From: a virus
IMG/VR virus record: IMGVR_UViG_3300018080_005856
Location: 32,001-96,000 of that record
DNA length: 64,000 nt
Strand: one strand, 5' to 3'
Part shown: positions 730-57,941 of the stretch, one piece after another
How positions within the stretch are numbered: position 1 is the stretch's first letter
How the letters are laid out: every line of letters begins with the position of its first letter
Program-made: the position numbers and the translations under genes
The notes under the pieces: generated by a model
What the model saw: the letters and a program-made list of their open reading frames with translations, nothing else
Told to the model about the DNA's origin: nothing
Databases searched by the model: none

Positions 730-802
730 TCGGGATAGAAGGATTCGAACCTTCGGACTCCTGGTCCCAAACCAGGCGTGGTGACCGCTCCACTATATCC
801 CG
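730..802 (-). tRNA. tRNA-Pro (anticodon TGG), CCA not encoded
   Basis: Minus-strand cloverleaf: acceptor CGGGATA/TATCCCG, D stem GTGG/CCAC, anticodon arm CCTGG-TTTGGGA-CCAGG, T arm GAAGG-TTCGAAT-CCTTC, discriminator A. Confidence 0.95.
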
Positions 803-3068: not shown

Positions 3069-3440
3069 TTATTCTCCATTAACAATTGAGATTTCCGCCT
3101 CCCTCGCGTGACCTTCTCTGATCTCACGAATTATGTCTTTTACTGTGGTTGTGTTAAAGTCTACTACTGGATCTACTACTGGATTGTGGGTAATCCTTCT
3201 TATATACGTTGCTGGGATTCCCAAAAGAAGTACAATACCTTCAAAATATCCTGCTACATTAATTGTCCTAAGGTCTTCTGATATTTCCAGAACTACCACA
3301 TTCAAGGTGTCATATTGTCCAAACTCTTTGTATCCTGCTACCGTTATCATTACGTTCAAGTATATACGAGTGAAGCTATTAAGGTAGGGTTTAAAACCTT
3401 CAGCACGTAGTATATCTAATATATCCACACTTTGTTTCAT
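3069..3440 (-). CDS. putative Sm-like protein (paralog family A)
   Basis: VVVLEISEDLRTINV...GIPATYIRRI; clearly similar to the adjacent 3437..3769. Confidence 0.6.
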   Translation of the reverse strand: MKQSVDILDILRAEGFKPYLNSFTRIYLNVMITVAGYKEFGQYDTLNVVVLEISEDLRTINVAGYFEGIVLLLGIPATYIRRITHNPVVDPVVDFNTTTVKDIIREIREGHAREAEISIVNGE

Positions 3441-3769
3441 AGCAGGGACACCTCAGCTTTCTCGAAGGCTTCGCTCTTGAACATATCAATAAGACGTTTG
3501 CTGTGCATATCACCAAGGCTAAGAGGCTCCACTCTCCTTACAAATCTTATAGGAATATCAGACAGAATGTTACAAGAATACCCAAAGTCGTATATTAGCC
3601 TAACATGTGAACAATCTTCTGATATTCCTAGTATTACCCCTACAAGCTCAAGTCCCCGCCATACCTCTTTGTCAGCAACTACATTAGCCAGTTTAATGAA
3701 ACAAATACAGCACAGTCTATTACTAAGCTCGGTAAACTGTGCCGCACGTATTACATCAGTGATGTTCAT
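3437..3769 (-). CDS. putative Sm-like protein (paralog family A)
   Basis: LVGVILGISEDCSHVRL...DIPIRFVRRVEP. Confidence 0.6.
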   Translation of the reverse strand: MNITDVIRAAQFTELSNRLCCICFIKLANVVADKEVWRGLELVGVILGISEDCSHVRLIYDFGYSCNILSDIPIRFVRRVEPLSLGDMHSKRLIDMFKSEAFEKAEVSLL

Positions 3770-7796: not shown

Positions 7797-7829
7797 GCAA
7801 CTATTATTCATAGTTCATATATATGGAAA

Positions 7830-8471
7830 CTACTTATCAGATATCTTAAATCTGCCATTCATTCCACCCTTTCCAGATTTAGCTTCAGCTCTTCCAACGC
7901 CCAAACCAACTTCAAGGCCGGCTCTGTGCATCAGTTCTGTCAGTGTTTTTACCGATATTGTATCGGCATCATACTCTACCCTTGCCTTGATGCTCCATGT
8001 TTCCCACATTGTGCATATTGACGCCACAGATTTACCTTGGTCAGTTCTCACTACCCTGGGTAAGCATACTGGTGTTCCAACTACCTCTATAACCGGTGTT
8101 CCACATCTCCTATCAACCCCATCAGCCAGAGAGAATACCGTTTGTTTCATCTGGTTCATGGTGAGATCCGTATTCCTTGCTGCAGAGATTAGAGCAGACC
8201 TTATGGATAATGCACTTATTCCTATCTTGCCTTTTCCAAAGGTGTACCTGCTTTCTAAGTATAAGTACTCAAGATCAGGTTTCTCCTCCGCACCTCTCCT
8301 TGCTCGCTTCCCCGGTTCCTTGTCGAATAGGGACTTTATAATTCTGTCCCTCGATTCCCCTGACATTCTGTGACATATCAGTGGAGAAATACCCTTAAGA
8401 TGAAATACAACTATCTTGTGGTTGGGCATCACAGATAGTACTTGTTCCTTACTTTTCTTTGATGGTGCCAT
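7830..8471 (-). CDS. Cas7/RAMP-like protein (Vipr-like), 213 aa
   Basis: First strand VVFHLKGISPLICH, ISALSIRSALISAAR helix, WSIKARVEYD strand and C-terminal glycine-rich loop AGLEVGLGVGRAEAKSGKGGMNGRFKI; GAAAGGAGG RBS sets the start at 8471. Confidence 0.8.
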   Translation of the reverse strand: MAPSKKSKEQVLSVMPNHKIVVFHLKGISPLICHRMSGESRDRIIKSLFDKEPGKRARRGAEEKPDLEYLYLESRYTFGKGKIGISALSIRSALISAARNTDLTMNQMKQTVFSLADGVDRRCGTPVIEVVGTPVCLPRVVRTDQGKSVASICTMWETWSIKARVEYDADTISVKTLTELMHRAGLEVGLGVGRAEAKSGKGGMNGRFKISDK

Positions 8472-8554
8472 GAGTGTCCTCCTTTCTATATTTTCAGGAA
8501 TATGGAAACTACAGATTGGGACATTGGGTTCCAGACCTTGGAAAGAAAGGGGAC

Positions 8555-8749
8555 CTAGTCCCCCTTGGTGTTGTCTTTCCTGACCTGACATAGCAAGTAT
8601 CTCTTTGCTATTGCCATGTTCATTTGATAACGGATGGCCCATGATTGAATATCCATAGCCGGCCGTTCAATTGATTTCTCATAATCAACTAGATCCGTTC
8701 CAAACATGGTCAGTGATTTAATGATATCTACTCTACCTGTCTTTGACAT
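8555..8749 (-). CDS. hypothetical protein
   Basis: 64-aa ORF followed by a GGGGACTAGGTCCCC hairpin and T tract. Confidence 0.65.
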   Translation of the reverse strand: MSKTGRVDIIKSLTMFGTDLVDYEKSIERPAMDIQSWAIRYQMNMAIAKRYLLCQVRKDNTKGD

Positions 8750-8752
8750 AAT

Positions 8753-9172
8753 CTATTCTCCGGCTTCTGCCTCCTTTAGCGCGCAGTTGATGCACACCAT
8801 GCGGCCGTCCCTATGCCTCTGAATCCTGAGGCTCTTTGGGGTGTTACTCCAGTATTCTCCACATACATCGCATTTCTCCATATCTGTAGCCCCAAGTTCG
8901 CCTTCCCTTTGATTCATGGCATCTGGGTCAGTTTTCTGGCAGCCACAGTTTTCGCATACCATGTACTCGTCTTCCAGCAACCACCCACAACGACACTCCC
9001 ACATAGGTATCAGGCATTCAGCATAACCAGTTTCCGCTTTTGACTGCCTCTCTTTCTTCCATTTGGAACACACTTCAAGAGCATCTTCCAAGTCGTAGAA
9101 TTCTCCCTTGTGCCATATATTAGAGGTAATGCCGTCTTTGTGATAGCCTATTGATACTACTTTGTACTTCAT
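8753..9172 (-). CDS. zinc-ribbon protein
   Basis: CRC, CENC, CDVC and CINC motifs; AAGGAGG RBS. Confidence 0.7.
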   Translation of the reverse strand: MKYKVVSIGYHKDGITSNIWHKGEFYDLEDALEVCSKWKKERQSKAETGYAECLIPMWECRCGWLLEDEYMVCENCGCQKTDPDAMNQREGELGATDMEKCDVCGEYWSNTPKSLRIQRHRDGRMVCINCALKEAEAGE

Positions 9173-9184
9173 TTAGGAACCTCC

Positions 9185-9376
9185 TTACTGTTCAAATGGG
9201 TTGTACTGCAGCAAACACCAATCTAGCCGTAGTTCTCTTCTCTTTCGCTTCTTCTTCTTCCATGGGAGCTTCTTTGATTCTTCCCATTCTCTGAAGATGC
9301 GTTCTTTCATAGATGCTTTGGCTTCTGCAAGGTCACATAGAGTTTGCGACATTATTTGCAAATAAGTTCTCCTCAT
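9185..9376 (-). CDS. small basic hypothetical protein
   Basis: AAGGAGG RBS; LPWKKKKRKRREL motif. Confidence 0.7.
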   Translation of the reverse strand: MRRTYLQIMSQTLCDLAEAKASMKERIFREWEESKKLPWKKKKRKRRELRLDWCLLQYNPFEQ

Positions 9377-9423
9377 AGTTTCTATTCCTCCTTTATATAG
9401 TCTATTCTATGGAATTGCTCCAC

Positions 9424-9669
9424 CTATAGTCCTTGTGGCATTGGCATCCAGCCAGCAACATCTTCGCATGCTATATATGCTGGAATGAATCCATCATCAA
9501 AGTATAATGCGTTCTTAAGCTGATCTCTATAGCATGTGCCACCAAATTCCTGGTCATCTTTGGACAGATAACCAACGGTGACCCGGTTGCGTGTCCTATT
9601 GGGATAGACCAGTGACAGTATAATTGTCTTACCCTCTATAGGGTCCCTATCCGTAATCCAGTCATTCAT
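9424..9669 (-). CDS. DUF551-like protein
   Basis: N-terminal WITDRDP and C-terminal VAGWMPMP motifs. Confidence 0.7.
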   Translation of the reverse strand: MNDWITDRDPIEGKTIILSLVYPNRTRNRVTVGYLSKDDQEFGGTCYRDQLKNALYFDDGFIPAYIACEDVAGWMPMPQGL

Positions 9670-9670
9670 G

Positions 9671-9991
9671 TCATGACCTCCTCTCTTTCATTTCGAGCCT
9701 CTCGAGTCTCTCGTTCTCAAGCATATCCACCATTCTTCTATAGGCCTCATCTAGCATCTCTATGTGATCCATCGGGTAGCCGGTCCAAGTCATCATCTCT
9801 GCTACTATTTGACCAAACCATTTTACCAAACCGCCCATACTTGAGAGATCGCGCCCGGCCATGTCTAGTGGGCTACCTTGCACTTTTGTGCTGTTGACAA
9901 CCCCGATTAGATCCTCGAGGAAGCTAGCCTTGTTAGCTAATTCCCTAATGACATTACTCATGTCCTCGATCAGTTCGTCTTTTATTACCAT
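9671..9991 (-). CDS. hypothetical protein
   Basis: AAGGAGG RBS, 106 aa. Confidence 0.7.
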   Translation of the reverse strand: MVIKDELIEDMSNVIRELANKASFLEDLIGVVNSTKVQGSPLDMAGRDLSSMGGLVKWFGQIVAEMMTWTGYPMDHIEMLDEAYRRMVDMLENERLERLEMKERRS

Positions 9992-10009
9992 TGTTCGTCC
10001 TCCTTACTA

Positions 10010-10375
10010 TTATATGTTACTATTAGCATAGAAGATAATAGTGTTAGGTTTATCCAAGGATTCTGCCAGATCTAGTGAGTGCTTTGTTCCTCTGCTTTCT
10101 CCATCCCAGAATGCCAGAACCATGTCACAATGATCCACTATGAGCTTATTCCTCTTGTATCCCGCTGATTTGCCGTACTTGTTCCACTCAGCTCTGAATA
10201 CTGTCAAGGGTATATTGTTCTCATTCGCATATCTTGCTCCCAGGGAATCAGCTCCCCTGGCACCGCCAGATACTATTTCCTCTATTTCGTGACCGTTTCT
10301 TATGAGCTCTTCAACACTCTGCTTGAGTAATTCATAGTCGTCGAATTCTCTTGATCCTATTATTGCTAGTATCAT
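10010..10375 (-). CDS. SLOG-family (YspA/DUF2493-like) protein
   Basis: IIGSREF...IVSGGARGADSLG...AEWNKYGKSAGYKRN...AFWDGESRGT motifs. Confidence 0.9.
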   Translation of the reverse strand: MILAIIGSREFDDYELLKQSVEELIRNGHEIEEIVSGGARGADSLGARYANENNIPLTVFRAEWNKYGKSAGYKRNKLIVDHCDMVLAFWDGESRGTKHSLDLAESLDKPNTIIFYANSNI

Positions 10376-10499
10376 GTTACATCCTCCTTAAGTTATATTC
10401 ATATATATAGAAAGGCGAATCTTAAGCCATGTGTTCCAGAGTACCAGTAAAAGAAGCGGGCGTTAGCCCGCGGTTGTTTCTCACTATGATGACCTATTG

Positions 10500-10781
10500 C
10501 TACTCGGGGTAGCTGTTGTCGCCCTCGGCTTCAGCTTCCTCGGGTTGCTCTTTATTAGCTTCAGCAACAGAGCCACTTACCTTCTCAAGATACTCCTTTG
10601 CAGGTATTGTGACTTCATAGGTCGGAAGTATGATGGTCGTCCTCATGATGTCTTCACCGGTTGACTTGTTCTTATAGTCACCCTTACGCTCTCTGAACTC
10701 ACATTTCTTGAGAACTTCCTCATCAAATAAGCCCATCTTCTTTAGCTGAACGAATTGGCCTCTAGTAATCGTACATTGCAT
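10500..10781 (-). CDS. hypothetical protein with acidic tail
   Basis: CAGGAGG RBS; followed by the GCGGGC-TAAC-GCCCGC terminator. Confidence 0.7.
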   Translation of the reverse strand: MQCTITRGQFVQLKKMGLFDEEVLKKCEFRERKGDYKNKSTGEDIMRTTIILPTYEVTIPAKEYLEKVSGSVAEANKEQPEEAEAEGDNSYPE

Positions 10782-10981
10782 GACGATACCCTCCTGTTTG
10801 TGATTCGCGAATCAAGAATGATTCACGCGAGATATTTCTATCTCATATGTATGGAAAGGAAAGGGCCTTTCGGCCCTTAGGGATCATAGCGTTTATCAAA
10901 CAAGGGATGACCCCTTATCAATCATCATACTAGGAGATACCATAAATATGGAAAAAGAGAGCTGGCCTGCTCTCTTAATCC

Positions 10982-11104
10982 GTGCGTGTTATAGTATTGG
11001 CTTTGTTCCTGCGGTCAGCCTACCCAGCAGTTGAGCAGTTACAGGAACTATAAGTGCTCACCACCGGCTCCTCTGGATCCGCGAAATCCTTCGGGATAAC
11101 ACAC
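10982..11104 (-). ncRNA. candidate structured ncRNA with kissing loop
   Basis: Closing stem GTGTGTTAT/ATAACACGC; hairpin CCGGTGGTGAGCA/TGCTCAACTGCTGG whose loop GTTCCTGT complements loop GCAGGAAC of the next hairpin; has its own promoter motif and terminator. Confidence 0.55.
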
Positions 11105-11139
11105 CTCTGTATTATACCACGAGTAAGGAATCGAAGAAA

Positions 11140-11340
11140 CTATCCTCCGGCTCCATGCTTACAAAGACAGTCCTTAGACACACACTTACCTGTGTGATCA
11201 ACCTGACATGGGCCGCAGCCTTCACATATAACTACGGCATACATGCCTTTCCTGGTATCCTCTTCTGATGATAAACCGGATAGATCGCCTAGATCTTCAC
11301 CAAAGTGATCTATACTGCACTGCTTACAGAAATCAGCCAT
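11140..11340 (-). CDS. small Cys-rich protein
   Basis: MADFCKQC...CEGCG...VDHTGKC; CAGGAGG RBS. Confidence 0.75.
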   Translation of the reverse strand: MADFCKQCSIDHFGEDLGDLSGLSSEEDTRKGMYAVVICEGCGPCQVDHTGKCVSKDCLCKHGAGG

Positions 11341-11398
11341 AGCTATTCCTCCTGTATTATAGTCACAGTTATGGAAAAGATGAGAGCCAGAGGCTCTC

Positions 11399-11677
11399 TT
11401 ATCCGAGATGTATGGGTCTGTTCTTCATATAGATATAGGCAACAAGTCCAGCTACGGCTACACATCCGAATCCTGTGAGGAACAGGTACAGAATAGTAAG
11501 CCATATGCTTCCAGTTCCTATCAAGAACAGAACTATTGAGCCTGTAGCCATGGCCCCTACTATCCATAGTTTCTTATCGTAGATATTCGGGTTGTTTCTC
11601 TTTACATTCACTGAGAATGCCCACCAGCTTACTACGATAGAAGCCACATAAACCAGAACGGCTAGAAATGTAATCAT
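11399..11677 (-). CDS. membrane protein (3 TM)
   Basis: Three hydrophobic segments; GGAGGAGG RBS. Confidence 0.75.
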   Translation of the reverse strand: MITFLAVLVYVASIVVSWWAFSVNVKRNNPNIYDKKLWIVGAMATGSIVLFLIGTGSIWLTILYLFLTGFGCVAVAGLVAYIYMKNRPIHLG

Positions 11678-11722
11678 GATAACACCTCCTCCATCTATTC
11701 TATCAGTAAGGAAAGAAGGGGA

Positions 11723-11923
11723 CTACTCGTCCCCGAAGATGTTGTCCTGGCATTTCTGGCACAACCCTGATATTTCGTACTCTTTCCGAGATAGATCATC
11801 TCTGAAGCTATTCGGATTAGGGAGTACTACTTGATGGCAAATAGGACATCTACGTGACTCTATGTCCTTCTTTGCCTCAGGGAATACCTTGAATACGGGT
11901 TTGTTAAGATCTGGTTTATTCAT
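11723..11923 (-). CDS. small zinc-binding protein
   Basis: CPIC...FRDDLSRKEYEISGLCQKCQD motif. Confidence 0.75.
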   Translation of the reverse strand: MNKPDLNKPVFKVFPEAKKDIESRRCPICHQVVLPNPNSFRDDLSRKEYEISGLCQKCQDNIFGDE

Positions 11924-11978
11924 GTCTAAACAGCCTCCAGACTAACCATATTATGAATATTACTATCAACAATTCCAT
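11916..11978 (-). CDS. 20-aa hydrophobic micropeptide
   Basis: TAAGGAGG RBS then MELLIVIFIIWLVWRLFRHE*. Confidence 0.5.
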   Translation of the reverse strand: MELLIVIFIIWLVWRLFRHE

Positions 11979-12009
11979 GACTGGCCTCCTTATCATAAGT
12001 ATGAAATTT

Positions 12010-12641
12010 ATCCCCCTTTCCTGTATCCGGGGTACCATTGTCCCTTCAGACTCGCGCCCCTCTTGAGGAAGCTTAATAATAACAGAGCGCACCATTCCAG
12101 ACATCTGCGAGCGAACGGCGCCAGCCGGCCGGAGATGCACAGCTATGCCTGTCATTCTACCGTGCGTCATTCAAGAGATGGAATTAAGCCTCGCGAGGGA
12201 CTAAAGAGAAATACTCTGACGGCTACTCGTCAATAGTCTAATAAGGGATTATCGCCCGGGAAAATAGCCCTGTAACCCAGTACATTTCCCTATGGCTCCG
12301 GCTATTGCTCGGTCACTCTCCCCCTCAAGGGGGCCGGACGCCTCTTACAATCCTATTTCTCAGCTGTTTTCATGTACATCCCTCTCCTGTACATGAATGC
12401 TGTCGACACTTCCATAAATCCTCCGGGGAAAGGGTAATCACCCCCAGATATCCAGTATAAATACTGATATATCCAGGGACGGGGGAGGAAATCCCCCGGA
12501 CCCCCTCTATTCCTAGCCAATCAAGATCCTGAACCGGTAAAATATATAGATCGGGTATGAGCCGATCCATATATCTGTCACAGAAGCGTCAGCCACACCC
12601 CTGCCGGTCGGCCCCACCAATGGCTGAAATGGGAAGGCCCC
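12010..12641 (-). ncRNA. candidate large (~630 nt) structured ncRNA
   Basis: No RBS-led ORF; GC-rich; many stems including long-range GACGCTTCT/AGAGGCGTC and a pseudoknot; starts right after the promoter motif at 12647. Confidence 0.6.
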
Positions 12642-12671
12642 ATTTGTATGGAAAAGAAGAGGCCGTAGCCT

Positions 12672-12938
12672 CTATTCATTGCTAGTTGATATGACTATTC
12701 GCCCTTCATCATCAAACTCGTTGTTGTGTTCGTATGGGTTATACCCCATCCTCTTTAAATCATGTAAGGCGGCACGGCAGGATTTTATCTCGCCGTTGCA
12801 ACTAAAGACGATAAGTATGGTGATATGGTCACCAGTATGCTCGTCCACCGCGCAGAGGTCAACGTTAGTATGGACGGACTTCTCCAGCACTATACACCAG
12901 TGCTTGTTTTCTTTATGTTTTCCTTCAAACATTCTCAT
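12672..12938 (-). CDS. hypothetical protein
   Basis: AAGGAGG RBS; terminator AGAGGCTACGGCCTCT overlaps the stop. Confidence 0.75.
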   Translation of the reverse strand: MRMFEGKHKENKHWCIVLEKSVHTNVDLCAVDEHTGDHITILIVFSCNGEIKSCRAALHDLKRMGYNPYEHNNEFDDEGRIVISTSNE

Positions 12939-13058
12939 CTCTATTTCCTCCTTGTTTTATCATAGCCAATTTGGGGGGTCTACCAAAGCAGAACACCCCC
13001 AAAGTAAGCTATTATGATCAACGTCCTCATAAATATAGAAAAGAAGAGGCCGTAGCCT

Positions 13059-13334
13059 CTATACTCGCCAGGTTCTTATATCATTGACGGCCTTACTAAT
13101 ATCAACGTGTTGAGCCAGAATATCTCGGGCTACGTCTATCTTTCCCTGTCTGTAGGCCTCGTACCATATGGCCTGAGTAAGCTCAGATATTGCTTTTATA
13201 TCCTCATCTTTTACATCCTTTCCCATATGTACTACCTTATCCAGGAACTGGAAAGCGCATCTGTGGATTTGAACTCGGTGCAGCTCACTATCCTCTGAAA
13301 ACGTTACTTCACATAGAACTAAAGAATCGTCCAT
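13059..13334 (-). CDS. hypothetical protein
   Basis: AAAGGAGGT RBS sets the start at 13334 (MDDSLV); same terminator sequence as the next gene. Confidence 0.7.
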   Translation of the reverse strand: MDDSLVLCEVTFSEDSELHRVQIHRCAFQFLDKVVHMGKDVKDEDIKAISELTQAIWYEAYRQGKIDVARDILAQHVDISKAVNDIRTWRV

Positions 13335-13408
13335 GTATATTACCTCCTTTAATGTAGTTGACTTATGATCAATGTCCTCGTAAATATGGAAAAGAGGGCT
13401 ATTAACCC

Positions 13409-13816
13409 TCAGTGTGAGCATGGTGCCCCTGTAGCAAGGCGCGCCTCAGCGTCAGCGGGGTTCTCACCCGCATTTACATGGACAAACTCTATTTCTATTT
13501 GGTCCTTCACACGAGTTATCCACTCCTGGTACTCTTTTGTGGCCGGTTTCTTAGCCTTCCAAGAGCCATTCGCCCAAGCAGATACACCTTCGTAGTAGTG
13601 TTTAATGACTACTTTCTCGTACCCCTTGGAATGAGCATATCTGACAGCCTCTATGGCTGCCTTGATTTCGCCCCCTACGTTCCTCATAGAGACAATATCG
13701 TCCCTAACTAAGGCGCCATGGGCTTTATACCCATCAGAAGCCACTATCCCCCAACCCACAAGGGTTGGATTATTAATAGTAAACGAGCCGTCAGTATAAA
13801 CCTCTATAGTTCTCAC
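13409..13816 (-). CDS. RNase HI-fold protein (possibly catalytically altered)
   Basis: VYTDGSF, RNVGGEIKAAIEAV, EGVSAWANGSWKAKK and NPADAEAR motifs; GGAGGTG RBS with GTG start. Confidence 0.85.
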   Translation of the reverse strand: MRTIEVYTDGSFTINNPTLVGWGIVASDGYKAHGALVRDDIVSMRNVGGEIKAAIEAVRYAHSKGYEKVVIKHYYEGVSAWANGSWKAKKPATKEYQEWITRVKDQIEIEFVHVNAGENPADAEARLATGAPCSH

Positions 13817-13864
13817 AACATCACCTCCAATACAGATATATAACAAATCTCATATATATAGAAA

Positions 13865-14245
13865 CACGCTATATTACCTCTTTTATTACCTTTACATACT
13901 GAGATATTACCCTCACTACATACATCTCATTGCCCTTACATACAATATGGGGGTGCGTCCCTCTATACAGTACTCCCCTTCTATGCCATTACAATACCTA
14001 TACCGGGTACAATACAATACAATACTAGATACAATACCAGGTACATGAACTTGACAGGGCTAGGACGCTCATTATTTATATACTGAGCTATTATTTGTGA
14101 CCTGACTTATGCAGGTCATTATATGGGTTTAAGACCCATATTATTGGCAAAACTGTCAGATTCTTGACAGTAATTTGCTTATGGGTTCCCCTCCCTAAAG
14201 GGCACCCTCCCCATGTGTTCCTTATGTGTTTTTATGTTAAAAGGG
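13865..14245. repeat. non-coding region with CAATA/TATTAC short repeats and hairpins
   Basis: tacaatacaatacaatac at ~14008-14025, tattacc x3, inverted repeats TGACCTG/CAGGTCA, ATATGGGT/ACCCATAT and CTGTCA/TGACAG. Confidence 0.5.
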
Positions 14246-14248
14246 GGC

Positions 14249-14584
14249 CTAGTGGCCCCAGATCTTATGGTCTTGATACTTCCATATAGGCAGTGATATG
14301 CTATATACTAGGGCGCCTAGCACCGCAGTATTTCTACAGTAGTACCAGAGACACTTCAATATGGCCGGATAGCCGTAATAATACGCTACCAGGGTCCATA
14401 TTCCGAATATGAAGGAACAGGTATATGCCAGCATAGCTAGCGTTTCACTTTCCCTCCATGTTGCCATTCCTATCAGGAATAGCACCGCAGTTATAATATG
14501 TAACCCATACGCTACAGATAGGACACTTCCGTATTCTGTAGACTGACTCAGTATGGGCCTTCCCTCTATAATGAACCAATCCAC
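14249..14584 (-). CDS. membrane protein
   Basis: Three hydrophobic segments; GGAGGT RBS with GTG start. Confidence 0.7.
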   Translation of the reverse strand: MDWFIIEGRPILSQSTEYGSVLSVAYGLHIITAVLFLIGMATWRESETLAMLAYTCSFIFGIWTLVAYYYGYPAILKCLWYYCRNTAVLGALVYSISLPIWKYQDHKIWGH

Positions 14585-14764
14585 GATTACCTCCAGTAAG
14601 TATGATTATATTGTACTTTCTTGCTGTTATGGGCTGTCACAGCAAGGAGACGAGGGGGTAGCCTAAGTACATAGGCATCCAGATTCCGAGTCAGGTACTG
14701 GCTAAACGACAGTCCTGATTCTCACCCATGGGTATGGAAACGTAAAGGGGAGGGCCTTAGCCCT

Positions 14765-14944
14765 CTATTCTAATGTGGTTACGATCTCTTTTACCAACTC
14801 CATTCCCTCTTTCCCATACTCTATGAGTTTAGGGAGTTCATCTCCGGAGATCTCATATTTGAGATCTACTTTGGCGCCTGACAGGCTGAACTTCTCGTCC
14901 GGGACTTCAAGGGACTTTACTTCGAATGTCATTTGCATGATCAT
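14765..14944 (-). CDS. small hypothetical protein (59 aa, not in ORF track)
   Basis: AGGAG RBS; MIMQMTFEVKSLEVPDEKFSLSGAKVDLKYEISG...; flanked by a promoter motif and a terminator. Confidence 0.7.
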   Translation of the reverse strand: MIMQMTFEVKSLEVPDEKFSLSGAKVDLKYEISGDELPKLIEYGKEGMELVKEIVTTLE

Positions 14945-15035
14945 GATATATACTCCTGTTAGTATGATTTGGGACTCTATATCCCACTATTATGGAAAGA
15001 TGAGGGCCTATTAAGCCCTCTATGTTTACTCGGTT

Positions 15036-15308
15036 TTAACCCTCTCTGACGGTAGCTGTCTGCCGGGACAATTTCTCCATCTTTACGAGGGCTTTCTGCT
15101 CTTTCCTGTATGCGTTTACAGCATTAAGCAGGTGCTGCCTGCAGACGTGGCAGGACATGATATGATCGATTGTTTCGATGTTATCATGAATGAGCTTCTC
15201 GCTCTTCTCTGCATTGTTACAGGTATTATGTTCGACCCACTTCTTCTCCAGTTTGTGAGAAGTGTTTGCGAGTCCTGTTACGGCGTTAGTTACTATGTTC
15301 TTAAACAT
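15036..15308 (-). CDS. hypothetical protein
   Basis: TAAGGAGGT RBS; 90 aa; H..SC..C motif. Confidence 0.7.
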   Translation of the reverse strand: MFKNIVTNAVTGLANTSHKLEKKWVEHNTCNNAEKSEKLIHDNIETIDHIMSCHVCRQHLLNAVNAYRKEQKALVKMEKLSRQTATVREG

Positions 15309-15347
15309 AGTGGTACCTCCTTAGGTAATATTCATGAGTATGGAAAA

Positions 15348-15473
15348 GAGAGGCGAGCCGGTGCAATATCCTGCGTGCCCTCGTTAACTTTCAGATGTTT
15401 CGGGAGTAACCCTATCAACTGTTGGTATGGAGTGACGCATTCCCTTTCCCCGTTGGGACACCGTGATCCTCTC
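15348..15473 (-). ncRNA. candidate ~125-nt structured ncRNA
   Basis: Nested stems GAGAGG/CCTCTC, CGGTGT/GCACCG and TGCGT/ACGCA; begins at the G of the promoter motif and ends in a T tract; no ORF. Confidence 0.5.
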
Positions 15474-15495
15474 ATTTATATGGAAAGAGAAGGGG

Positions 15496-15684
15496 CTATG
15501 CCCCTAGGATTGACATTCCTGTGTATTTCCCTTTCTCCAGGGTTTCTACCACCGCTTTCTTTATAAGATCAGTAGGCCTGCCAAGGATAACACCCAGAAA
15601 CAGAACGAAGTCTGCCTCTTTCTTGTTTACCTCTGGGGCACCAGATTCTCTGATCTTCCGCTTCCAAATTGACATTGATATCAT
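15496..15684 (-). CDS. hypothetical protein
   Basis: GAGGAGGT RBS; terminator overlaps the stop. Confidence 0.65.
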   Translation of the reverse strand: MISMSIWKRKIRESGAPEVNKKEADFVLFLGVILGRPTDLIKKAVVETLEKGKYTGMSILGA

Positions 15685-15896
15685 CTCAGTACCTCCTCAA
15701 TATTGATATGAATCCCGGCTTCCTCAAAACGTCTTACTGTCTCGAGGTTATCTATGAACCCGGGTAACTCTCTCTTTACCTGCTGTAGCATGCGGGTGAG
15801 CTTTTGCCTCGCTACAACATTCCTACGAATCTTATCAATATCAGAGTCATTAAGGCCCTGTATAAAGCGTATAGCTTTAATCATATCTATTTTCAT
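15681..15896 (-). CDS. hypothetical protein
   Basis: AAAGGAGG RBS. Confidence 0.7.
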   Translation of the reverse strand: MKIDMIKAIRFIQGLNDSDIDKIRRNVVARQKLTRMLQQVKRELPGFIDNLETVRRFEEAGIHINIEEVLR

Positions 15897-16439
15897 GATA
15901 TTGCCTCCTTTGCACCGCCCACTATTCTAGAGGTGGGACAATGCATATATATGGAAAAGGAAGGCCGTGCACAGCCTCCCATACGGGATACATGGATTAC
16001 AGTTGGGCTAGGCACCTCGTCATTTCAGACTGTCTATTTACGCTCAGAGTGGACCATCTCTTCATCACGCACGTGACCGTCTTCTTGGTACCATTCCCAC
16101 GCTTATCTCCAGGGGATCCAGACCTGAAGATTATAGCTTCACCCAAGGACTTATCCGATTGTATGAAGCAGGTAGGGCGCCCCCTGAACGAATCCAGAGA
16201 ACGCCCTTTCAGTGGGTTTCACAGAAGAATACAACGGGGTATTAGGAAGGATTAAATATAATACCGCTAGTATGGAACCCCAAACAGAACCCCGGTAATA
16301 TAGTAATAACCCCCTATAAAGGGAAGGGTAGCCTCTTACCGCCGTTAATCCTCCCTGTAATGCGCATGGTAACGACCTTAAGTTGTTACATTATGTGAGC
16401 AGGGTAGGTCTGAACCTACCACTCACCATAAGGCCTGCT

Positions 16440-17013: not shown

Positions 17014-19458
17014 TTAGCCAAGTAACCTCTCCGCATAGAGGCATGCCATACCATTCATACCTCTTACGTTGGAAACCTCCTTTCTCTCTACGAGTGCTTG
17101 CACGAACACCGCATATAGAACGATAGCCCTTTCGATCTTAGATACATCGAGTGTATCTATTATCTCTGGGTTATCATGGAGTTGTTTCCTGGTAGTTCCG
17201 ACAATCTTCTCAAGAAGAGTATCCACAACTACCATGTGGACATGAGCCATAGGCTTATGAGCTAACGCCCACATCTGCAGCATGACCTCTCTTTCTTCGG
17301 CGGAGATCAAAGGCTTAGCCGCTTTAATGTTGTCAGCACGAAACTCGCCAGCAACATCAAAGATCTTGTCGGTATCAAGCTCTACTCTATACACCTGACG
17401 TATAGCCTGAGCGAAGGATTCTGCAGTTCCTTCTCTCCAGCCGACAAGTTTACCACTGATGACAGTAGCGGTAGGGGACTCCCTGTCACCAATGAGAAGT
17501 TTACCAAGAACTGTGTCACACAGTTCATAGGCTTCATTGACCCCAACAGATAGGCCAACATACTTCTTAATCCCTTGGACACTGTCCTGGATAGACTGTG
17601 CCAGAGGTAGAAGATCACTCATAGCAGATTCTAAAGCATCTGACCGGAAATCATAGACAGTAGCCAGACATTTCATGTAAGCCGCTACAAGTATAGCTGT
17701 TCTCTCTTGACACCACCTGCCATGCATACAGGCTGTCCAGGGAGTAAGCTCACCTTCAGCAGGTACCGATGATTTATCTATCATTCCGAAATCATCAGTA
17801 GCCCGCACCATGCTTCTATACCCCGGGAGGAATAGAGCATGATCATCACAGTCAGACTGCCAACCAACTGTGGCTTCCAAACACACTACAGCCACGACTC
17901 CATCTACATCATCCAAGGTATGCTCAGATAGACGTAGATCTAAGAAGGAGCCCTTTGTAGTATTTGGATACCTGACCCCAGCAACAAAGTCAGATATTTC
18001 TCCAGTCCGAATAGTAAACTGAGTAAATCCAGACTGAAGTGCATCCCGCATTTCACGAGATGGTACAAACTCCCCAGGAAGAAGCTTGTGAACGTGACCA
18101 CCATCCACAACCACATGAGTCCTGTGTATTATTGCTGCATATACAGAACTCGGGGCATTGGCACTCATAAGAGCCTTAGACCTCTTATTAAGTCCCATTA
18201 TGACTCCCGGATCGTTTGCAGGAAGATATCCAAGAACATACTTAGACAGATAGCTATCTATAAGTACATCCTCTTCATCATTGGATAGACCCATATCCAA
18301 GTGACGATACATGGATCCCCTGAGATCATTCAGAGCTGCAGTCTTACCAAATGCCTCTTTACGGAGAAGAGCCATGATATCTTTCCGTGTGACCTTATCC
18401 CACTGTCCAAGAACCATATAGAACAGGTTCAGGCGATAAGCCTCCTTCTGTTCATGGTTCTCAATCTTGGACAGCCCGATAGTCATGTCGAGAACTACGG
18501 AGTCTTTCCCGGCATAATCTACCTTTATCCATTTGATAGCCGAGTCATAACACCAACCATCAAACTCCTCTGGAATAGGCTTTCCATCTGGTCCTATAGA
18601 AGCCTGTGCTGGGGAGTGGAGCAGCCTCCCCTTCACTATTCCAGTCTTTCCATCCATAGGAACAAGACCTCTTACAAGACCAAAGTCCCCGGATTGTAGG
18701 ATACTTGCTCTGCGGACTAAGATCACACCATCCGCATCCAGAGTATTACCTACTTCAGAAAGCTCCTCTGGGAATACCTTTATCTTGAGCTGATCAGGCA
18801 TTCCGAGGATCTCAGACCAACCGTCTTTACCCGCCCTTATGCGAAGGACGTTGACCTCTTGATCTGATACGTTGCCACACGCTTCACGGATAACGTCAGC
18901 AAACATGTCCCTATTCACCGAAACTATTCCATTCAGAATGGTTTCAGCTCTCCTGGAGGATATCCAGGAAGGATGTGCCGGGAATGCTACACCCTTAACA
19001 CCTGTCATCTTGAGGGCATACTCAAAGAGTCTACCTCTCAGAAAGGTGCTACATGAAATCAGGTTGAGATTAAAGCGCTCCTTTCCCTTCTGATTCCGGT
19101 TCCTTTTAGCTATCTGTTGACCGTTGTACTTTAAGCCAGCACAATAGCTACGGCCTGCACGAGATCTCCGCATATCCCTTGCGAGCTCGACACCGAGGAC
19201 TTCTGCCAGTGCTGCAGCTGTAAATGTCTTAGTAACATCTACAGCCACCTGACGAAGCTCTCTTTTCCTGAAGGCCTTAAATGCCTTAAAGACATAAGAC
19301 CCAGGGAGGACGATCTGATTCTTTATATACGGTGATACAAAGAACCTGTCCCCGTTCCAAACAAGCGTCTTTCCAGGCAATGGCCTGAAGTCAGCTTGCT
19401 CAGATGCCCGGAGAGATGACCCTCCGAGTAACAACTTAAGTAACCCATGATTATCCAT
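17014..19458 (-). CDS. putative single-subunit two-barrel RNA polymerase (YonO / QDE-1 RdRP-like) with DCDD motif
   Basis: Ordered motifs DADGVILV, FGLVRG...IVKGRL, SAIKW, YRLNLF, LLPGEF, GVRYP, QSDCDD and LAQSIQDSVQGIKK parallel the cellular RdRP/YonO series DG.G.I, QIR...KG.L, S..KF, LN.Q, L..GEV, RxP, DxDGD and AVD..K; CAGGAGGT RBS. Confidence 0.7.
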   Translation of the reverse strand: MDNHGLLKLLLGGSSLRASEQADFRPLPGKTLVWNGDRFFVSPYIKNQIVLPGSYVFKAFKAFRKRELRQVAVDVTKTFTAAALAEVLGVELARDMRRSRAGRSYCAGLKYNGQQIAKRNRNQKGKERFNLNLISCSTFLRGRLFEYALKMTGVKGVAFPAHPSWISSRRAETILNGIVSVNRDMFADVIREACGNVSDQEVNVLRIRAGKDGWSEILGMPDQLKIKVFPEELSEVGNTLDADGVILVRRASILQSGDFGLVRGLVPMDGKTGIVKGRLLHSPAQASIGPDGKPIPEEFDGWCYDSAIKWIKVDYAGKDSVVLDMTIGLSKIENHEQKEAYRLNLFYMVLGQWDKVTRKDIMALLRKEAFGKTAALNDLRGSMYRHLDMGLSNDEEDVLIDSYLSKYVLGYLPANDPGVIMGLNKRSKALMSANAPSSVYAAIIHRTHVVVDGGHVHKLLPGEFVPSREMRDALQSGFTQFTIRTGEISDFVAGVRYPNTTKGSFLDLRLSEHTLDDVDGVVAVVCLEATVGWQSDCDDHALFLPGYRSMVRATDDFGMIDKSSVPAEGELTPWTACMHGRWCQERTAILVAAYMKCLATVYDFRSDALESAMSDLLPLAQSIQDSVQGIKKYVGLSVGVNEAYELCDTVLGKLLIGDRESPTATVISGKLVGWREGTAESFAQAIRQVYRVELDTDKIFDVAGEFRADNIKAAKPLISAEEREVMLQMWALAHKPMAHVHMVVVDTLLEKIVGTTRKQLHDNPEIIDTLDVSKIERAIVLYAVFVQALVERKEVSNVRGMNGMACLYAERLLG

Positions 19459-19541
19459 AGGGTACCTCCTGTATTTATTGTATGCCTCTGTGAGACACCC
19501 TCATAGTATTGAACTCAATAGTTCAATACCCAGAGGCTGCC

Positions 19542-19634
19542 TCATAAACACATACTACAGGGTATAACAAGTTGTTTGGCACAGTCACGATGTGAAGACT
19601 CACAACTGTGCATGCGTCGGTGTCGATATACCAT
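19542..19634 (-). CDS. 30-aa Cys/His-rich micropeptide
   Basis: TAGGAGGTG RBS then MVYRHRRMHSCESSHRDCAKQLVIPCSMCL*. Confidence 0.5.
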   Translation of the reverse strand: MVYRHRRMHSCESSHRDCAKQLVIPCSMCL

Positions 19635-19682
19635 AATGACACCTCCTATTGTTAATGCACTGTACCGATCTCAGCTACGGTA

Positions 19683-19725
19683 TGCGTCCGCCCGGGAGTC
19701 GAACCCGGGTAAGCGCCATTCGGAC
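19683..19725 (-). ncRNA. tRNA-like minihelix (acceptor-like stem + T arm)
   Basis: GTCCG-AATGGCGCTTA-CCCGGG-TTCGACT-CCCGGG-CGGAC immediately after a stop codon; no D or anticodon arm. Confidence 0.55.
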
Positions 19726-20034
19726 TTACTTCCACTCAGACAGGGGTGGCCCCTCCAGAGCGAGGTGTTCCCCCATCATATCTCTGGCATCATCCAGCAA
19801 CTGATCAAGATCAATCACTGGTTTGCCTACTTCCGCCTTAAGCTCGGTAGGAATATCAGCTACAGCCATGATGTGATTCCATGACTGTAAGAACTGTTCT
19901 GCCTCCTTCTTACTTAAGGCCTTCCCACTATACGCTTCAATAAGCAGCATAGTGTCCTTCACTGCAGTGGTTACCTGCTCCATCCTTCTCTTCATCCTTC
20001 TTGTGACTTCTTGTAACTCTATTGCCTTTGACAT
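19726..20034 (-). CDS. hypothetical early protein
   Basis: CAGGAGGT RBS directly 3' of hammerhead 1. Confidence 0.8.
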   Translation of the reverse strand: MSKAIELQEVTRRMKRRMEQVTTAVKDTMLLIEAYSGKALSKKEAEQFLQSWNHIMAVADIPTELKAEVGKPVIDLDQLLDDARDMMGEHLALEGPPLSEWK

Positions 20035-20050
20035 AGAGTACCTCCTGTGA

Positions 20051-20106
20051 TATGTTTCGGATCCCGCTACAGATCCTCATCAGTGGGCTTAAGCTACCCA
20101 TACATA
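20051..20106 (-). ncRNA. type III hammerhead ribozyme 1
   Basis: UAUGUA^UGGGU-AGCUUAA-GCCCA CUGAUGA GGAUCU-GUAGCG-GGAUCC GAAACAUA; complete core, cleavage predicted between 20101 and 20100. Confidence 0.92.
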
Positions 20107-20135
20107 GGGACAGTTTTACATCATGTCCCAGGATG
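20107..20135 (-). ncRNA. H-type pseudoknot 5' of hammerhead 1
   Basis: CATC-CT-GGGACA-T-GATG-TAAAAC-TGTCCC. Confidence 0.7.
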
Positions 20136-20141
20136 TAATGC

Positions 20142-20330
20142 TTAACGATATTGAGATAGATCTATACCTTTAACATTAAACCTACCAAATACTGCTTCAC
20201 GCTCAGCATTAACAGCCTTAAGCTTTCTTAAAGCCATCTGCACCTTTGCAGCGTGATACGGGTGAGCCTTGCAGAATTCAGCTATCTGCTCTGGGCTCAT
20301 TTCGAGTAAAGTTTTAACTAGTTCGACCAT
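20142..20330 (-). CDS. hypothetical early protein flanked by two hammerheads
   Basis: TAGGAGGT RBS, 62 aa. Confidence 0.8.
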   Translation of the reverse strand: MVELVKTLLEMSPEQIAEFCKAHPYHAAKVQMALRKLKAVNAEREAVFGRFNVKGIDLSQYR

Positions 20331-20348
20331 AATGGACCTCCTATAGTA

Positions 20349-20405
20349 GTGTTTCGGCTCTTGCTTAGGGAGCCATCTTCAGTGGGCTTAAAGCTACCCA
20401 GACAC
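20349..20405 (-). ncRNA. type III hammerhead ribozyme 2
   Basis: GUGUC^UGGGU-AGCUUUAA-GCCCA CUGAAGA U GGCUC-CCUAAGCAA-GAGCC GAAACAC; one extra U after A9; cleavage predicted between 20401 and 20400. Confidence 0.88.
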
Positions 20406-20406
20406 C

Positions 20407-20433
20407 GGGTAGTTTTACATCATACCCAGGATG
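20407..20433 (-). ncRNA. H-type pseudoknot 5' of hammerhead 2
   Basis: CATC-CT-GGGTA-T-GATG-TAAAAC-TACCC; stem 2 differs from copy 1 yet pairing is kept. Confidence 0.7.
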
Positions 20434-20440
20434 CTTGAGC

Positions 20441-20614
20441 TTACTTCTGTGTAGATACGCACTGGCCAGTAACTTTGTTGCAGACTACTTTGCCTTTGAA
20501 AGCATCACTAATCTGCTTGTCCTGCCTTGCTGCCAAAACTACAAACAGAGCCAAGAAAGCTACTGTAGCTACACCAACCATAAACTCTCCAAACTTCTCT
20601 TTTCTTGTATTCAT
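20441..20614 (-). CDS. small membrane-anchored protein (57 aa, not in ORF track)
   Basis: TAGGAG RBS; MNTRKEKFGEFMVGVATVAFLALFVVLAARQ...CNKVTGQC. Confidence 0.7.
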   Translation of the reverse strand: MNTRKEKFGEFMVGVATVAFLALFVVLAARQDKQISDAFKGKVVCNKVTGQCVSTQK

Positions 20615-20898
20615 ACTGATTCTCCTAGTTGCGGACTATACCCATTGATTCTGCAGGGGATTTAACTGCAGATCTCATACACTGTTATCCAGGTGGTATG
20701 AGTTACCTGTACGGCTCCATTGACTGATCCCAATGGCGCGCTATACTTGTCTACTCGTCCAATACGGTGTATAGCAACCTCTTGGCGCGAGGGTAGAAGT
20801 ACCCGGGGGCTCGAACCAAGCAGATCCGATCCTCTCTAATACTCACCTGGTCCCGTTATACCCAAAACCGGGTTTGGCCCCCTATAGGGATTTTTGTC

Positions 20899-20927
20899 TT
20901 GACTCCTGGATATGGTTCTTGTAATCT
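20899..20927 (+). promoter_or_regulatory. sigma70-like promoter for the rightward operon
   Basis: TTGACT-N17-TAATCT in the divergent intergenic region. Confidence 0.5.
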
Positions 20928-55967: not shown

Positions 55968-57941
55968 TCACCTATACCAAATGTCCCATGCCCAGCGGTC
56001 AGCTCCTTCACCTGTCAGCATAATAAGCTTATCTTTAAAAGATTCCATAGTATGCCCGCGTCTGGGTATAACTTCGCTATTAAAGCTTACAGGATTCCAT
56101 GTTATACCGTCAGATGACGACCAGGTGTCGTCACGGCGGCCAAAGGTGTAAGGGCTTTCATCATCAAAATGTACCCTTAAACATACAGCAGTACAGTAGG
56201 CGTCATGTGTATATTCAATAGTGCCGTAACTTACCAGTGTGACCCCAACTTCCAAATCTGTAATTTCCGCCCAGGTCCAGGGCACCCCGGTGTCCGGGTT
56301 GTCTGTCCAGGTGTATGTTCTGCCTTCATAATTGCCTGTTGTAGATATTATTGGATCCAGATCTGTAGATTCAAATATAGAACCGTTTGTCATTATAGCT
56401 GCCCTCGCATTTGCAGAGGAACCGCTCCTTCTCACAGAAACAAACACCTCTATGCTTGCTATATAGCCGCCCCAGGCCAGAGGATTGTCCTCTACCTCGT
56501 AGAGGTCCCTGTAAGTGCCTCCGGATGGAGGACCGCCTTCAGTAGATACCCTGGTTATATCACCATCTATTTCTCCCGGATCATTTACACTGCTGTAATG
56601 CGGAGAAGATGGGGGATACGGCATGCTGGTTTCTGAACCATCGCCAGTCACCATCAGTACACCTACTGCCGGGATCCCATACTCTCCGCCGTTGATCCAT
56701 AACTTCCCGTCATGCACTGCGGAAGCAAACATTGCTCGTGTTCCAAAACCTATACCAGCTGGAGGTACTTTGTCCCATACAAGGCCGTCAGACGAATGCC
56801 ACACTTCTGAACTATAGGTATAGCCAGTTATAAGACCATACGAAGACGGTGAAGAACTGTATGAGCATGACATGCCGCCGATAAGCCACATCTCATTATT
56901 GAATACCCGCAACTCAAATAGGGTCCTGCTGGTGAATATGTCCCTGACGTGAGCCCAGTCTGCTGCATTGAATGGATAAGAAGGCCCATGGTCAACTATG
57001 CACGTGTAATGAGAATTATAGTGTGTGACAATATCGCCTACAGAGTAGGACATATCGTACCGCCATCTTGGCGGAGTTACAAGCTCCCAGTCTACTCCGT
57101 TTGTAGACCGCCATACATCATTCTCAAATCCCATTCCGATACAGCCGCCTATAACCCACATGTAACCATCAAAAGAGACAGCTTTATGGCCGGCCCTACC
57201 GCAGAACCCGGGACTGTTCGTTGCTCTGTGCCAGTCTGTGCCATCATAAGAGTACCATACGTCATCGTTGTATGTAGTATCCAGAGACCGGCCTCCTATG
57301 TTCCATATTCTGCCATCATATACGCATGCTGCACTTGCATGGTTGGATATGTTTTCAAAGACAGGATGTTCTGTAGCCAGATACCAGTTGACAGCGTCAT
57401 CTGTATACCATATATCATTAATGAAGTTACCCGAATCGAAGGTGGCTGTATTTACATAGTTCTGGTACCCATTAAAACCACCTATAACCCATAACTTGTC
57501 ATCAAATATAACTGACTGGTACAGACTTCTGGATCTGAACCATGACATTGAGGAAAGAGAAGCCCAGTTATCACCAACTTTTAGAGTATGGCCGGCAGCC
57601 ATTTGACTGTAATCACTGTACCCCTTACTATCACAGTATGCCTGAACCTGGTAGTAATAAAAGTATCCGTCTTTTACGTCAGTGTCAGTAAAGGACAGCT
57701 CTGTAGTTTCACCGATGTAATCTACAACTTCACAAGCTGCCCCGCTCCTGTAAATATAGTAGAGTTCAGCATACTCTACAGCATCCCAGGTTATTACTAC
57801 TCTATCGGCATAATCACCGCAGGTAGCGTGTATGTTTTCCGGTGCCAGATAAGGGGGCTCCTCTTGCTCTATGTCATCATGGCATAGACATCCTGAAAGG
57901 AGAATTAGTAGGAATTGACATAATATTGTTGCAGTCTTCAC
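55968..57941 (-). CDS. lipoprotein with FN3, Kelch-like propeller and CBM5/12-like insert
   Basis: GGAGG + GTG at 57941, lipobox LLSGC, FN3 (VVITWDAV...YYYQVQA), Kelch-like repeats, WRYDMSYSVGDIVTHYNSHYTC insert. Confidence 0.8.
   Translation of the reverse strand: MKTATILCQFLLILLSGCLCHDDIEQEEPPYLAPENIHATCGDYADRVVITWDAVEYAELYYIYRSGAACEVVDYIGETTELSFTDTDVKDGYFYYYQVQAYCDSKGYSDYSQMAAGHTLKVGDNWASLSSMSWFRSRSLYQSVIFDDKLWVIGGFNGYQNYVNTATFDSGNFINDIWYTDDAVNWYLATEHPVFENISNHASAACVYDGRIWNIGGRSLDTTYNDDVWYSYDGTDWHRATNSPGFCGRAGHKAVSFDGYMWVIGGCIGMGFENDVWRSTNGVDWELVTPPRWRYDMSYSVGDIVTHYNSHYTCIVDHGPSYPFNAADWAHVRDIFTSRTLFELRVFNNEMWLIGGMSCSYSSSPSSYGLITGYTYSSEVWHSSDGLVWDKVPPAGIGFGTRAMFASAVHDGKLWINGGEYGIPAVGVLMVTGDGSETSMPYPPSSPHYSSVNDPGEIDGDITRVSTEGGPPSGGTYRDLYEVEDNPLAWGGYIASIEVFVSVRRSGSSANARAAIMTNGSIFESTDLDPIISTTGNYEGRTYTWTDNPDTGVPWTWAEITDLEVGVTLVSYGTIEYTHDAYCTAVCLRVHFDDESPYTFGRRDDTWSSSDGITWNPVSFNSEVIPRRGHTMESFKDKLIMLTGEGADRWAWDIWYR

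Follow-up and report, generated by a model that had tools for sequence, protein, structure and literature searches.

A predicted single-chain, two-barrel RNA polymerase with a contracted D-x-D-D metal-binding loop in an uncultured marine phage

The DNA analyzed here, called the window throughout, is a 64,000-nucleotide stretch that corresponds to bases 32001-96000 of a 150,487-bp IMG/VR record (IMGVR_UViG_3300018080_005856), which is classed as linear and 79% complete. A gene on its minus strand, at positions 17014 to 19458, encodes an 814-amino-acid (aa) protein, P0001, whose predicted structure matches those of RNA polymerases (RNAPs) that carry two double-psi beta-barrels (DPBBs). Its putative metal-binding loop, D-x-D-D, is one position shorter than the canonical loop and is conserved throughout a small family of relatives. 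The explanation that we consider probable as a whole is that P0001 is a single-chain two-barrel RNAP with a D-x-D-D loop and serves the phage as a transcriptase that reads a compact DNA motif.

RESULTS

P0001 is predicted to have the fold of two-barrel RNA polymerases

P0001 is encoded by the longest open reading frame (ORF) of its neighborhood, and the assignment draws on this ORF, its translation, a structural model, and fold matches. The ORF starts with ATG, and a Shine-Dalgarno sequence, AGGAGG, can be read 6 nt before it (19465-19470, minus strand). An earlier note, made from the sequence of this DNA, had listed eight motifs in the order expected for polymerases of the YonO/QDE-1 type, and the translation contains all of them in that order: DADGVIL (residues 241-247), VRG..VKGRL (262-279), SAIKW (306-310), RLN (342-344), LPGEF (460-464), RYP (496-498), SDCDD (535-539), and DSVQGIK (625-631).

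An AlphaFold2 model built from the family alignment had a mean predicted local distance difference test score (pLDDT) of 92.4 and a predicted template-modeling (TM) score of 0.89, with 677 residues at a pLDDT of at least 90. When the model was compared with the PDB by Foldseek, there were 26 matches at E<=0.001, and all were two-barrel RNA polymerases. The best were QDE-1 (E 1.8e-10), P74-26 gp62 (E 2.8e-9), and an entry named "P32 gp64" (E 4.6e-9); RDR2 (E 2.5e-7), phi14:2 gp66 (E 1.3e-5), P23-45 gp96 (E 1e-4), and then bacterial beta-prime chains followed. VIA-align gave a Z score of 17.5 for gp64 (8f72_B; 419 residues at 5.0 Å) and 17.1 for 8f5m_A, and alignments to gp64-type structures covered 419 to 454 residues at 5.0 to 5.6 Å. 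The Z scores for QDE-1 were about 15 to 16 (best, 16.2 with 486 residues), with up to 577 residues aligned, and those for RDR2 and gp96 were 12 to 14 and 11, respectively. Beta-prime, Rpb1, and A190 scored about 9.9, all over model residues 428-666, whereas in both programs the matches to QDE-1-type and gp64-type RNAPs spanned residues 15-814. Among the viral structures of BFVD, the model matched "RNA dependent RNA polymerase" entries from uncultured phages, gp64, and segments of crAss-like giant proteins; in the ESM Atlas, it matched a 517-member, mostly cyanobacterial "RdRP domain" cluster (TM 0.56/0.62) and a phage PF05183 cluster (TM 0.55). No PolD chain was among the fold matches listed, which is weak evidence against a PolD-like DNA polymerase. 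With two-barrel RNAPs as the top matches, the AlphaFold and Foldseek check proposed in the earlier note supports a pair of double-psi barrels in the model.

The domain order of the model is that of a single-subunit two-barrel enzyme, with a predicted beta-like DPBB, then a beta-prime-like DPBB, and then a bridge-helix-like element. The beta-like barrel (residues ~204-345; 18424-18849, minus strand), drawn from DSSP strands at 218-344 and from conservation, carries R208/K211/D212, D243-G244, K276/R278, and K309, which may bind the nucleoside triphosphate. DSSP next gives a helical insert (346-431) and the beta-prime-like barrel (432-545), which holds R496-Y-P498, S504, and the Asp loop. By conservation and alignments, R496-Y-P498...S504 (17947-17973, minus strand) is the RxP...S motif of this barrel; it resembles the R-x-P-x-x-H-x-x-S of beta-prime, precedes the metal loop within that barrel, and aligns with RRP..S of gp64 and RIP..S of gp66. 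Beyond it are a 43-residue helix (573-615), which is putatively bridge-helix-like, an invariant Q628-G-I-K631-K632 (together 17563-17742, minus strand; DSSP, conservation, and the beta-prime/Rpb1 matches), and a C-terminal helical domain. K276, R278, K631, and K632 presumably contact the nucleoside triphosphate and the nucleic acid. K276 is invariant, and R278, K211, and K309 are conserved at 90% or more; all four lie in the first barrel and are candidate counterparts of the lysines of beta. Given this model, it is virtually certain that P0001 has the fold of the two-barrel polymerases and is homologous to them.

The putative metal-binding loop is one position shorter than the canonical loop

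Codons 17842-17853 of the minus strand read D536-C537-D538-D539, inside WQSDCDDHA, as the earlier note had stated. The loop lies between helix 529-533 and strand 540-545 of the model. Conservation was counted over 38 aligned representatives that share no more than 50% identity, most pairs being 16 to 25% identical, and the three aspartates are present in all 38. The second position varies: Gly in 23 representatives, Cys in 5 (including P0001), Asp in 4, Ser in 3, and Asn in 3. Thus, of the "DCDD" loop described earlier, D-x-D-D holds for the whole family and the cysteine does not, and the family signature is [QG]-x-D-x-D-D-H. The loop does not match the canonical DxDxD (DFDGD-type) signature, since it has four positions, with the three acidic residues retained.

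Alignments to known enzymes indicate where the missing position lies. When the family profile was aligned to YonO by hhalign (E 0.5, 26 columns), QFDNDGDKALII was placed against QSDCD-DHALFL, where a gap of one residue faces the Gly of DNDGD. In gp66, which was the best PDB match of the barrel sub-profile, RIP..S and DFDiD aligned, and the Ile was treated as inserted with respect to the family profile (E 0.9). In gp64, RRP..S and ADYDGD aligned without a gap (hhalign against the single sequence, E 0.076). The YonO and gp66 alignments, each of which is nonsignificant alone, agree with the earlier statement that the loop lacks one residue relative to DxDGD. All three alignments would put the loop and RxP..S on the catalytic barrel.

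The five-position loop has been described in the literature as universally conserved in two-barrel RNAPs, from those of bacteria to Pol II. Its fourth position is Gly in all earlier-studied RNAPs, with the exception of Ile or Val in crAss-like enzymes (bioRxiv 10.1101/2020.03.07.982082). Each of the three aspartates is needed for activity in YonO (PMC5467207), and the same is true of gp66 (bioRxiv 10.1101/2020.03.07.982082). By analogy, D536, D538, and D539 presumably hold the catalytic Mg2+. Because one position has been deleted and yet all three aspartates are strictly selected, we regard the loop as a genuine active-site variant rather than a decayed site.

P0001 belongs to a small family known from metagenomes

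Searches with the sequence of P0001 found no Pfam match at E<=10 and nothing meaningful in PHROGs, NCBIfam, or the PDB. No relative was found by tblastn against 50,697 GenBank phage records (INPHARED) or by pattern-guided scans of IMG/VR and of 185,579 prokaryotic species genomes (GTDB). An index of 5.8 billion proteins contained five full-length homologs, one 65% identical and four 34 to 47% identical, so P0001 is not a chance ORF. An exhaustive hidden Markov model (HMM) search of 1.84 billion cluster representatives found only 41 relatives, 13 of them at E<=1e-30, and all were derived from metagenomes. The source itself is an uncultured marine phage with a double-stranded DNA (dsDNA) genome of about 150 kb. 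Genes for a large terminase, a portal, a major capsid protein, and a tail sheath identify it as a myovirus-like tailed phage. Near-identical DNA was found in sediment and seawater metagenomes from four studies, and no RNA sequencing run was listed as containing the locus.

Across the 38 representatives, R208, G244, L261, K276, P498, D536, D538, D539, Q628, K631, and K632 are invariant, and K211, D243, R278, K309, R496, and S504 are conserved at 90% or more. Since these positions fall inside them, six of the eight motifs carry family-wide conserved residues; conservation of RLN and LPGEF is restricted to the close subfamily. In the distant members P0029, P0032, P0035, and P0037, the polymerase domain is fused to extra domains, the partners being NADAR plus DUF1848, an N-terminal RecD2-like SF1 helicase, RNase H, and DUF4326.

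None of the 38 members matches PF05183 at E<=0.01. The earlier description of the protein as YonO/QDE-1-like therefore stands for the fold and fails for the sequence, given this result and a YonO alignment of E 0.5 over 26 columns. The accompanying proposal of a new clade of phage RNAP is borne out in that the family is separate and its nearest solved fold is the Thermus phage gp64 type. P0001 is the founder or a member of a small family that lacks annotation and has been seen in metagenomes alone; this family is distinct from PF05183 and YonO at the sequence level and may be among the 23 two-barrel families already published (Chaban et al.). A full-text literature search for "DxDD" together with "double-psi" found no paper.

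Comparison with characterized polymerases

The model places P0001 in the same structural clade as gp64, QDE-1 and the RDRs, YonO, and crAss gp66. The best structural match is the nonvirion RNAP of Thermus phages, P23-45 gp64/P74-26 gp62 (PDB 8f72 and 8f5m; Chaban et al. 2024, PMC10770324), which likewise has both barrels in a single chain. The gp64 gene, too, is encoded leftward and lies beside the structural module, where it opens a run of small genes (early genes in P23-45). There are differences, however. gp64 comes from a thermophile siphovirus, has 616 aa, and keeps a canonical DYDGD, whereas P0001 comes from a marine myovirus-like phage, is 200 aa longer, and has a larger C-terminal helical domain; their sequences align nonsignificantly (hhalign E 0.076 against the single gp64 sequence). 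P23-45 also has a second, virion-borne polymerase, for which the present genome offers only a candidate.

Neurospora QDE-1 and plant RDR2, cellular RNA-dependent RNA polymerases of PF05183, share the fold of P0001, including the C-terminal region, at 11 to 13% identity. QDE-1 has a DYDGD loop and is a eukaryotic RNA interference enzyme that acts on RNA and single-stranded DNA, whereas P0001 has no PF05183 match. YonO of the Bacillus prophage SPbeta (Forrest et al. 2017, PMC5467207) is a phage single-chain two-barrel RNAP that, at 839 aa, is close to P0001 in size; it keeps the loop Gly, unlike P0001, and its alignment to P0001 is limited to 26 residues (E 0.5). The gp66 virion RNAP of the crAss-like phage phi14:2 (PDB 6vr4) matches in fold, and its DFDID is a precedent for a non-Gly fourth position in an active enzyme. 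Nevertheless, gp66 is a 2,180-residue protein that is carried within the virion and injected, and it keeps five loop positions, whereas the P0001 family deletes position four.

A compact motif recurs downstream of the polymerase gene

The motif TTTCCATA-N4-TG, with no more than one mismatch, occurs 25 times in the window, compared with 6.2 ± 2.7 times in shuffled sequences, and none of 100 shuffles reached 25. Its strict form, TTTC(C/T)ATA-N3-(A/G)(T/C)G, has 18 matches across the full 150 kb, of which 17 are on the minus strand (genome positions 19,868-47,957), all of these downstream of the polymerase gene and in the same orientation. Fourteen form a cluster of candidate promoters or terminator-promoter cassettes at window positions 7816-15957 (minus strand), and three more lie further left, beyond the window. 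The structural module and the sequence upstream of the polymerase operon contain no copy.

Within 60 nt after 10 of the 17 sites, there is a GGAGG and a start codon; several of the others precede structured, ORF-poor sequence. A GC-rich hairpin directly precedes the motif at 11 sites. The six hairpin-free sites retain the full 14-nt motif, and its conservation runs 10 nt past the T-run. Two relatives' contigs contain comparable cassettes, solely downstream of the polymerase gene: a hairpin plus TTTTTATAC-N3-A(T/C)GG three times in L011, and a similar hairpin plus TTTTTATAC-N3-ATGG in L004. Between 7 and 21.5 kb, sigma-70-like sites are not enriched (28 versus 28.7 expected), whereas terminator-like sites are (25 versus 9.2 expected). 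This pattern fits a phage polymerase with its own short promoter, set in terminator-promoter cassettes. There is a precedent in P23-45, whose early and middle genes are transcribed by gp64 from a motif of its own (PMC10770324). That the TTTCCATA motif is the promoter of this polymerase is a tentative assignment from its sequence and distribution, and we put it at slightly less than an even chance. Another motif, TTTATACC/A, is present where the operon begins but was set aside, as it is not enriched in the genome.

Two other features were seen in the same region. One, at 10375-12679, is a 2.3-kb stretch without an ORF of at least 100 aa; it holds five copies of the TTTCCATA motif, several of them before structured sequence and with no ribosome-binding site (RBS), and may encode small-RNA genes. 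The other, at 13990-14045 (minus strand), is a cluster of five or six iteron-like GTATTGTA repeats that may be an origin or a regulator-binding array.

The polymerase gene follows a leader operon with RNA elements

The polymerase ORF is fifth in an operon that runs leftward from a divergent region at ~20.9 kb. Its leader (19459-20900, minus strand), delineated from the sequence, its ORFs, and Rfam, contains four small ORFs, two hammerhead-like elements, and a tRNA-like minihelix. The arrangement recurs on four contigs of relatives (L004, L009, L010, and L011), whose polymerases are 19 to 43% identical: each polymerase gene is preceded by a few ORFs of 50 to 115 aa, and these adjoin the divergent junction in L004, L009, and L011, the three contigs that reach far enough upstream. 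Where the contigs continue downstream of the polymerase gene, there are more small ORFs with gaps.

The hammerhead-like elements are of type III, lie at 20049-20108 and 20346-20408 (both minus strand) around a 62-aa leader ORF, and have intact CUGAUGA/CUGAAGA...GAAAC cores. Their Rfam Hammerhead_3 scores of 31.7 and 23.5 bits are under the gathering score of 48.5; the E values are 2e-4 and 0.043 for the 1.7-kb stretch searched. In the upstream operon of the distant homolog P0011, L009:2267-2337 (plus strand) matches Hammerhead_II at 41.4 bits, above the Rfam threshold of 37. Just past that polymerase gene, L009:6308-6360 (plus strand) is twister-P1-like at 34 bits, under the threshold of 67.2, and L010 has a CUGAUGAG...CGAAAC element spotted by eye. 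Self-cleaving ribozymes thus seem, from these sequence matches, to recur around the D-x-D-D polymerase family.

The tRNA-like minihelices consist of an acceptor-like stem and a GGTTCGA(C/T)TCC T-arm and lie between small genes of the leader operons, at ~19683-19725 (minus strand) in the window, at L004:5070-5110, and at L009:2181-2230, 3208-3330, and 3618-3670. ARAGORN and Rfam did not call them as tRNAs; they may be RNA-processing signals. At the divergent junction that heads the polymerase operon (20802-20889) is a unique palindrome, CCCTATAGGG, with TTCGAGCCCCCGGG ~60 nt beyond it. Both elements are found at the equivalent place in L004 and L011, and together they may form a first-stage promoter or a leader element.

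A candidate second polymerase and other genome features

About 60 kb to the right of the polymerase gene, outside the window, the genome encodes P0044, a Cys-free protein of 2,121 aa (G000:C1:110367-116732; L005:6321-12686), with VRAPELS at residue 1328 and DQDMD at residue 1390. In three homologs of ~2,110 to 2,125 aa that share the gene order, S-P-E-x-S...D-x-D-x-D-P is invariant (DFDFD or DFDAD), which makes P0044 a candidate for a virion RNAP that is injected. Its sequence matched nothing in the PDB or PHROGs. An AlphaFold2 model of residues 500-1480, made from 4 sequences, had a pLDDT of 41 and was unusable, and a profile comparison with the D-x-D-D family by hhalign was nonsignificant and aligned a different segment. 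Since the searches, the model, and the profile comparison all failed, a two-polymerase cascade in this phage is a lead and not a finding.

Also outside the window is a 2,760-aa protein (G000:C1:118767-127049; L007:2035-10317) with an M23 peptidase region at ~233-429 and weak PHROG matches to tape-measure families, including the 5,002-position phrog_23188; its probable role is that of a tape-measure or ejection protein. Within the window are genes for a 664-aa Kelch-repeat protein (55968-57962, minus strand), a full-length RecA (60390-61484, minus strand; Pfam E 6e-101), and a tRNA-Pro(TGG) (730-802, minus strand).

DISCUSSION

We propose that P0001 is the phage's own nonvirion, DNA-dependent transcriptase. 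It would be made from the short leader operon beside the divergent control region and would transcribe the leftward block of small genes, and possibly small RNAs, from TTTC(C/T)ATA-N3-ATG, a motif that often abuts the hairpin ending the preceding unit. Activity as an RNA polymerase appears likely and is favored because D-x-D-D, RxP...S, K276/R278, and Q-x-x-K-K are conserved. By analogy with its relatives, P0001 is also fairly likely to be a DNA-dependent phage transcriptase, as YonO, gp64, gp66, and gp96, all the characterized phage members, are DNA-dependent RNAPs (PMC5467207, PMC10770324).

Several points weigh against this proposal. Every sequence alignment to known RNAPs is individually nonsignificant (E 0.076 to 0.9). 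All characterized two-barrel RNAPs have a five-position loop, and a geometry of three Asp and one Mg is assumed for D-x-D-D. QDE-1, a close solved structural relative, copies RNA too, which weakens the case for a DNA template. The motif overlaps the T-rich tail of the hairpin and is possibly a termination or processing signal, and it could be recognized by a different polymerase, either the host RNAP aided by a phage factor or the 2,121-aa candidate virion enzyme.

From these last points comes an unlikely but substantial alternative, in which P0001 is an active two-barrel polymerase and the TTTCCATA motif is a terminator, a processing signal, or the promoter of another enzyme. P0001 would in that case transcribe a different gene class, such as late genes, for which YonO, which transcribes the late genes of a temperate phage, is a precedent (PMC5467207). 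Termination or processing would suit the 11 of 17 sites that directly follow a GC-rich hairpin and the excess of terminator-like sites, and the virion RNAP of P23-45 has a conserved termination motif (PMC10770324); it does not suit the six sites that keep the 14-nt motif without a hairpin, the conservation that extends past the T-run, or the 10 sites that precede an RBS and a start codon. Another enzyme's promoter could be that of the 2,121-aa protein encoded 60 kb away, with its invariant RxPELS...DxDxD, but that protein is unconfirmed as a polymerase. The absence of the motif upstream of the polymerase operon and from the structural module, and the lack of enrichment of sigma-70-like sites, also count against this alternative.

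It is improbable that P0001 is instead a mainly RNA-templated or primer-making enzyme resembling QDE-1, which might copy ribozyme-processed transcripts of its own operon or prime replication. The best structural matches include the RDRs and QDE-1, which has both RNA- and DNA-templated activity (PMC9508822); hammerhead-like elements surround small genes of the polymerase operon, with a relative's Hammerhead_II above the Rfam threshold; and two distant members carry fusions, one with RNase H and the other with an SF1 helicase. The phage enzymes characterized in this clade are nevertheless all DNA-dependent, the genome is dsDNA with a promoter-like class of motifs, the ribozyme matches in the window are under the Rfam gathering score, and the fusions are confined to distant members. 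A long shot among such ideas is that the D-x-D-D enzymes are RNA- or dual-templated and amplify ribozyme-cut small RNAs of their own leader operon. If true, this would amount to a viroid-like loop within a dsDNA phage, run by an enzyme with a metal site unlike that of characterized two-barrel polymerases. Hardly credible is a catalytically dead two-barrel protein kept as a nucleic acid binder, decoy, or regulator, an option that the earlier note had raised as a repurposed, inactive polymerase. The canonical five-position metal loop is indeed broken, but three acidic residues and R, K, and Q residues of both barrels are invariant over 38 lineages that are 16 to 25% identical elsewhere. Such invariance is the pattern expected of a working active site and not of a relic, and D-x-D-D in 38 of 38 representatives argues likewise against inactivity.

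We therefore return to P0001 as a phage transcriptase. It represents a new family and an active-site variant of a known enzyme type. At ~90 kDa, this candidate single-chain transcriptase is compact, and with its short candidate promoter it is a possible orthogonal expression tool; in addition, about 40 clusters of "hypothetical" proteins from marine and sediment phages gain an annotation. Should the 2,121-aa protein prove to be a polymerase as well, this myovirus-like phage would have a cascade of two polymerases such as has so far been shown for P23-45 alone. The deletion of one loop position, with three aspartates under strong selection, suggests that a loop of another shape is able to hold the catalytic magnesium. 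The family thus bears on models of the origin of the two-barrel active site and on the limits of its variation, and it provides a natural test of how fixed that site is.

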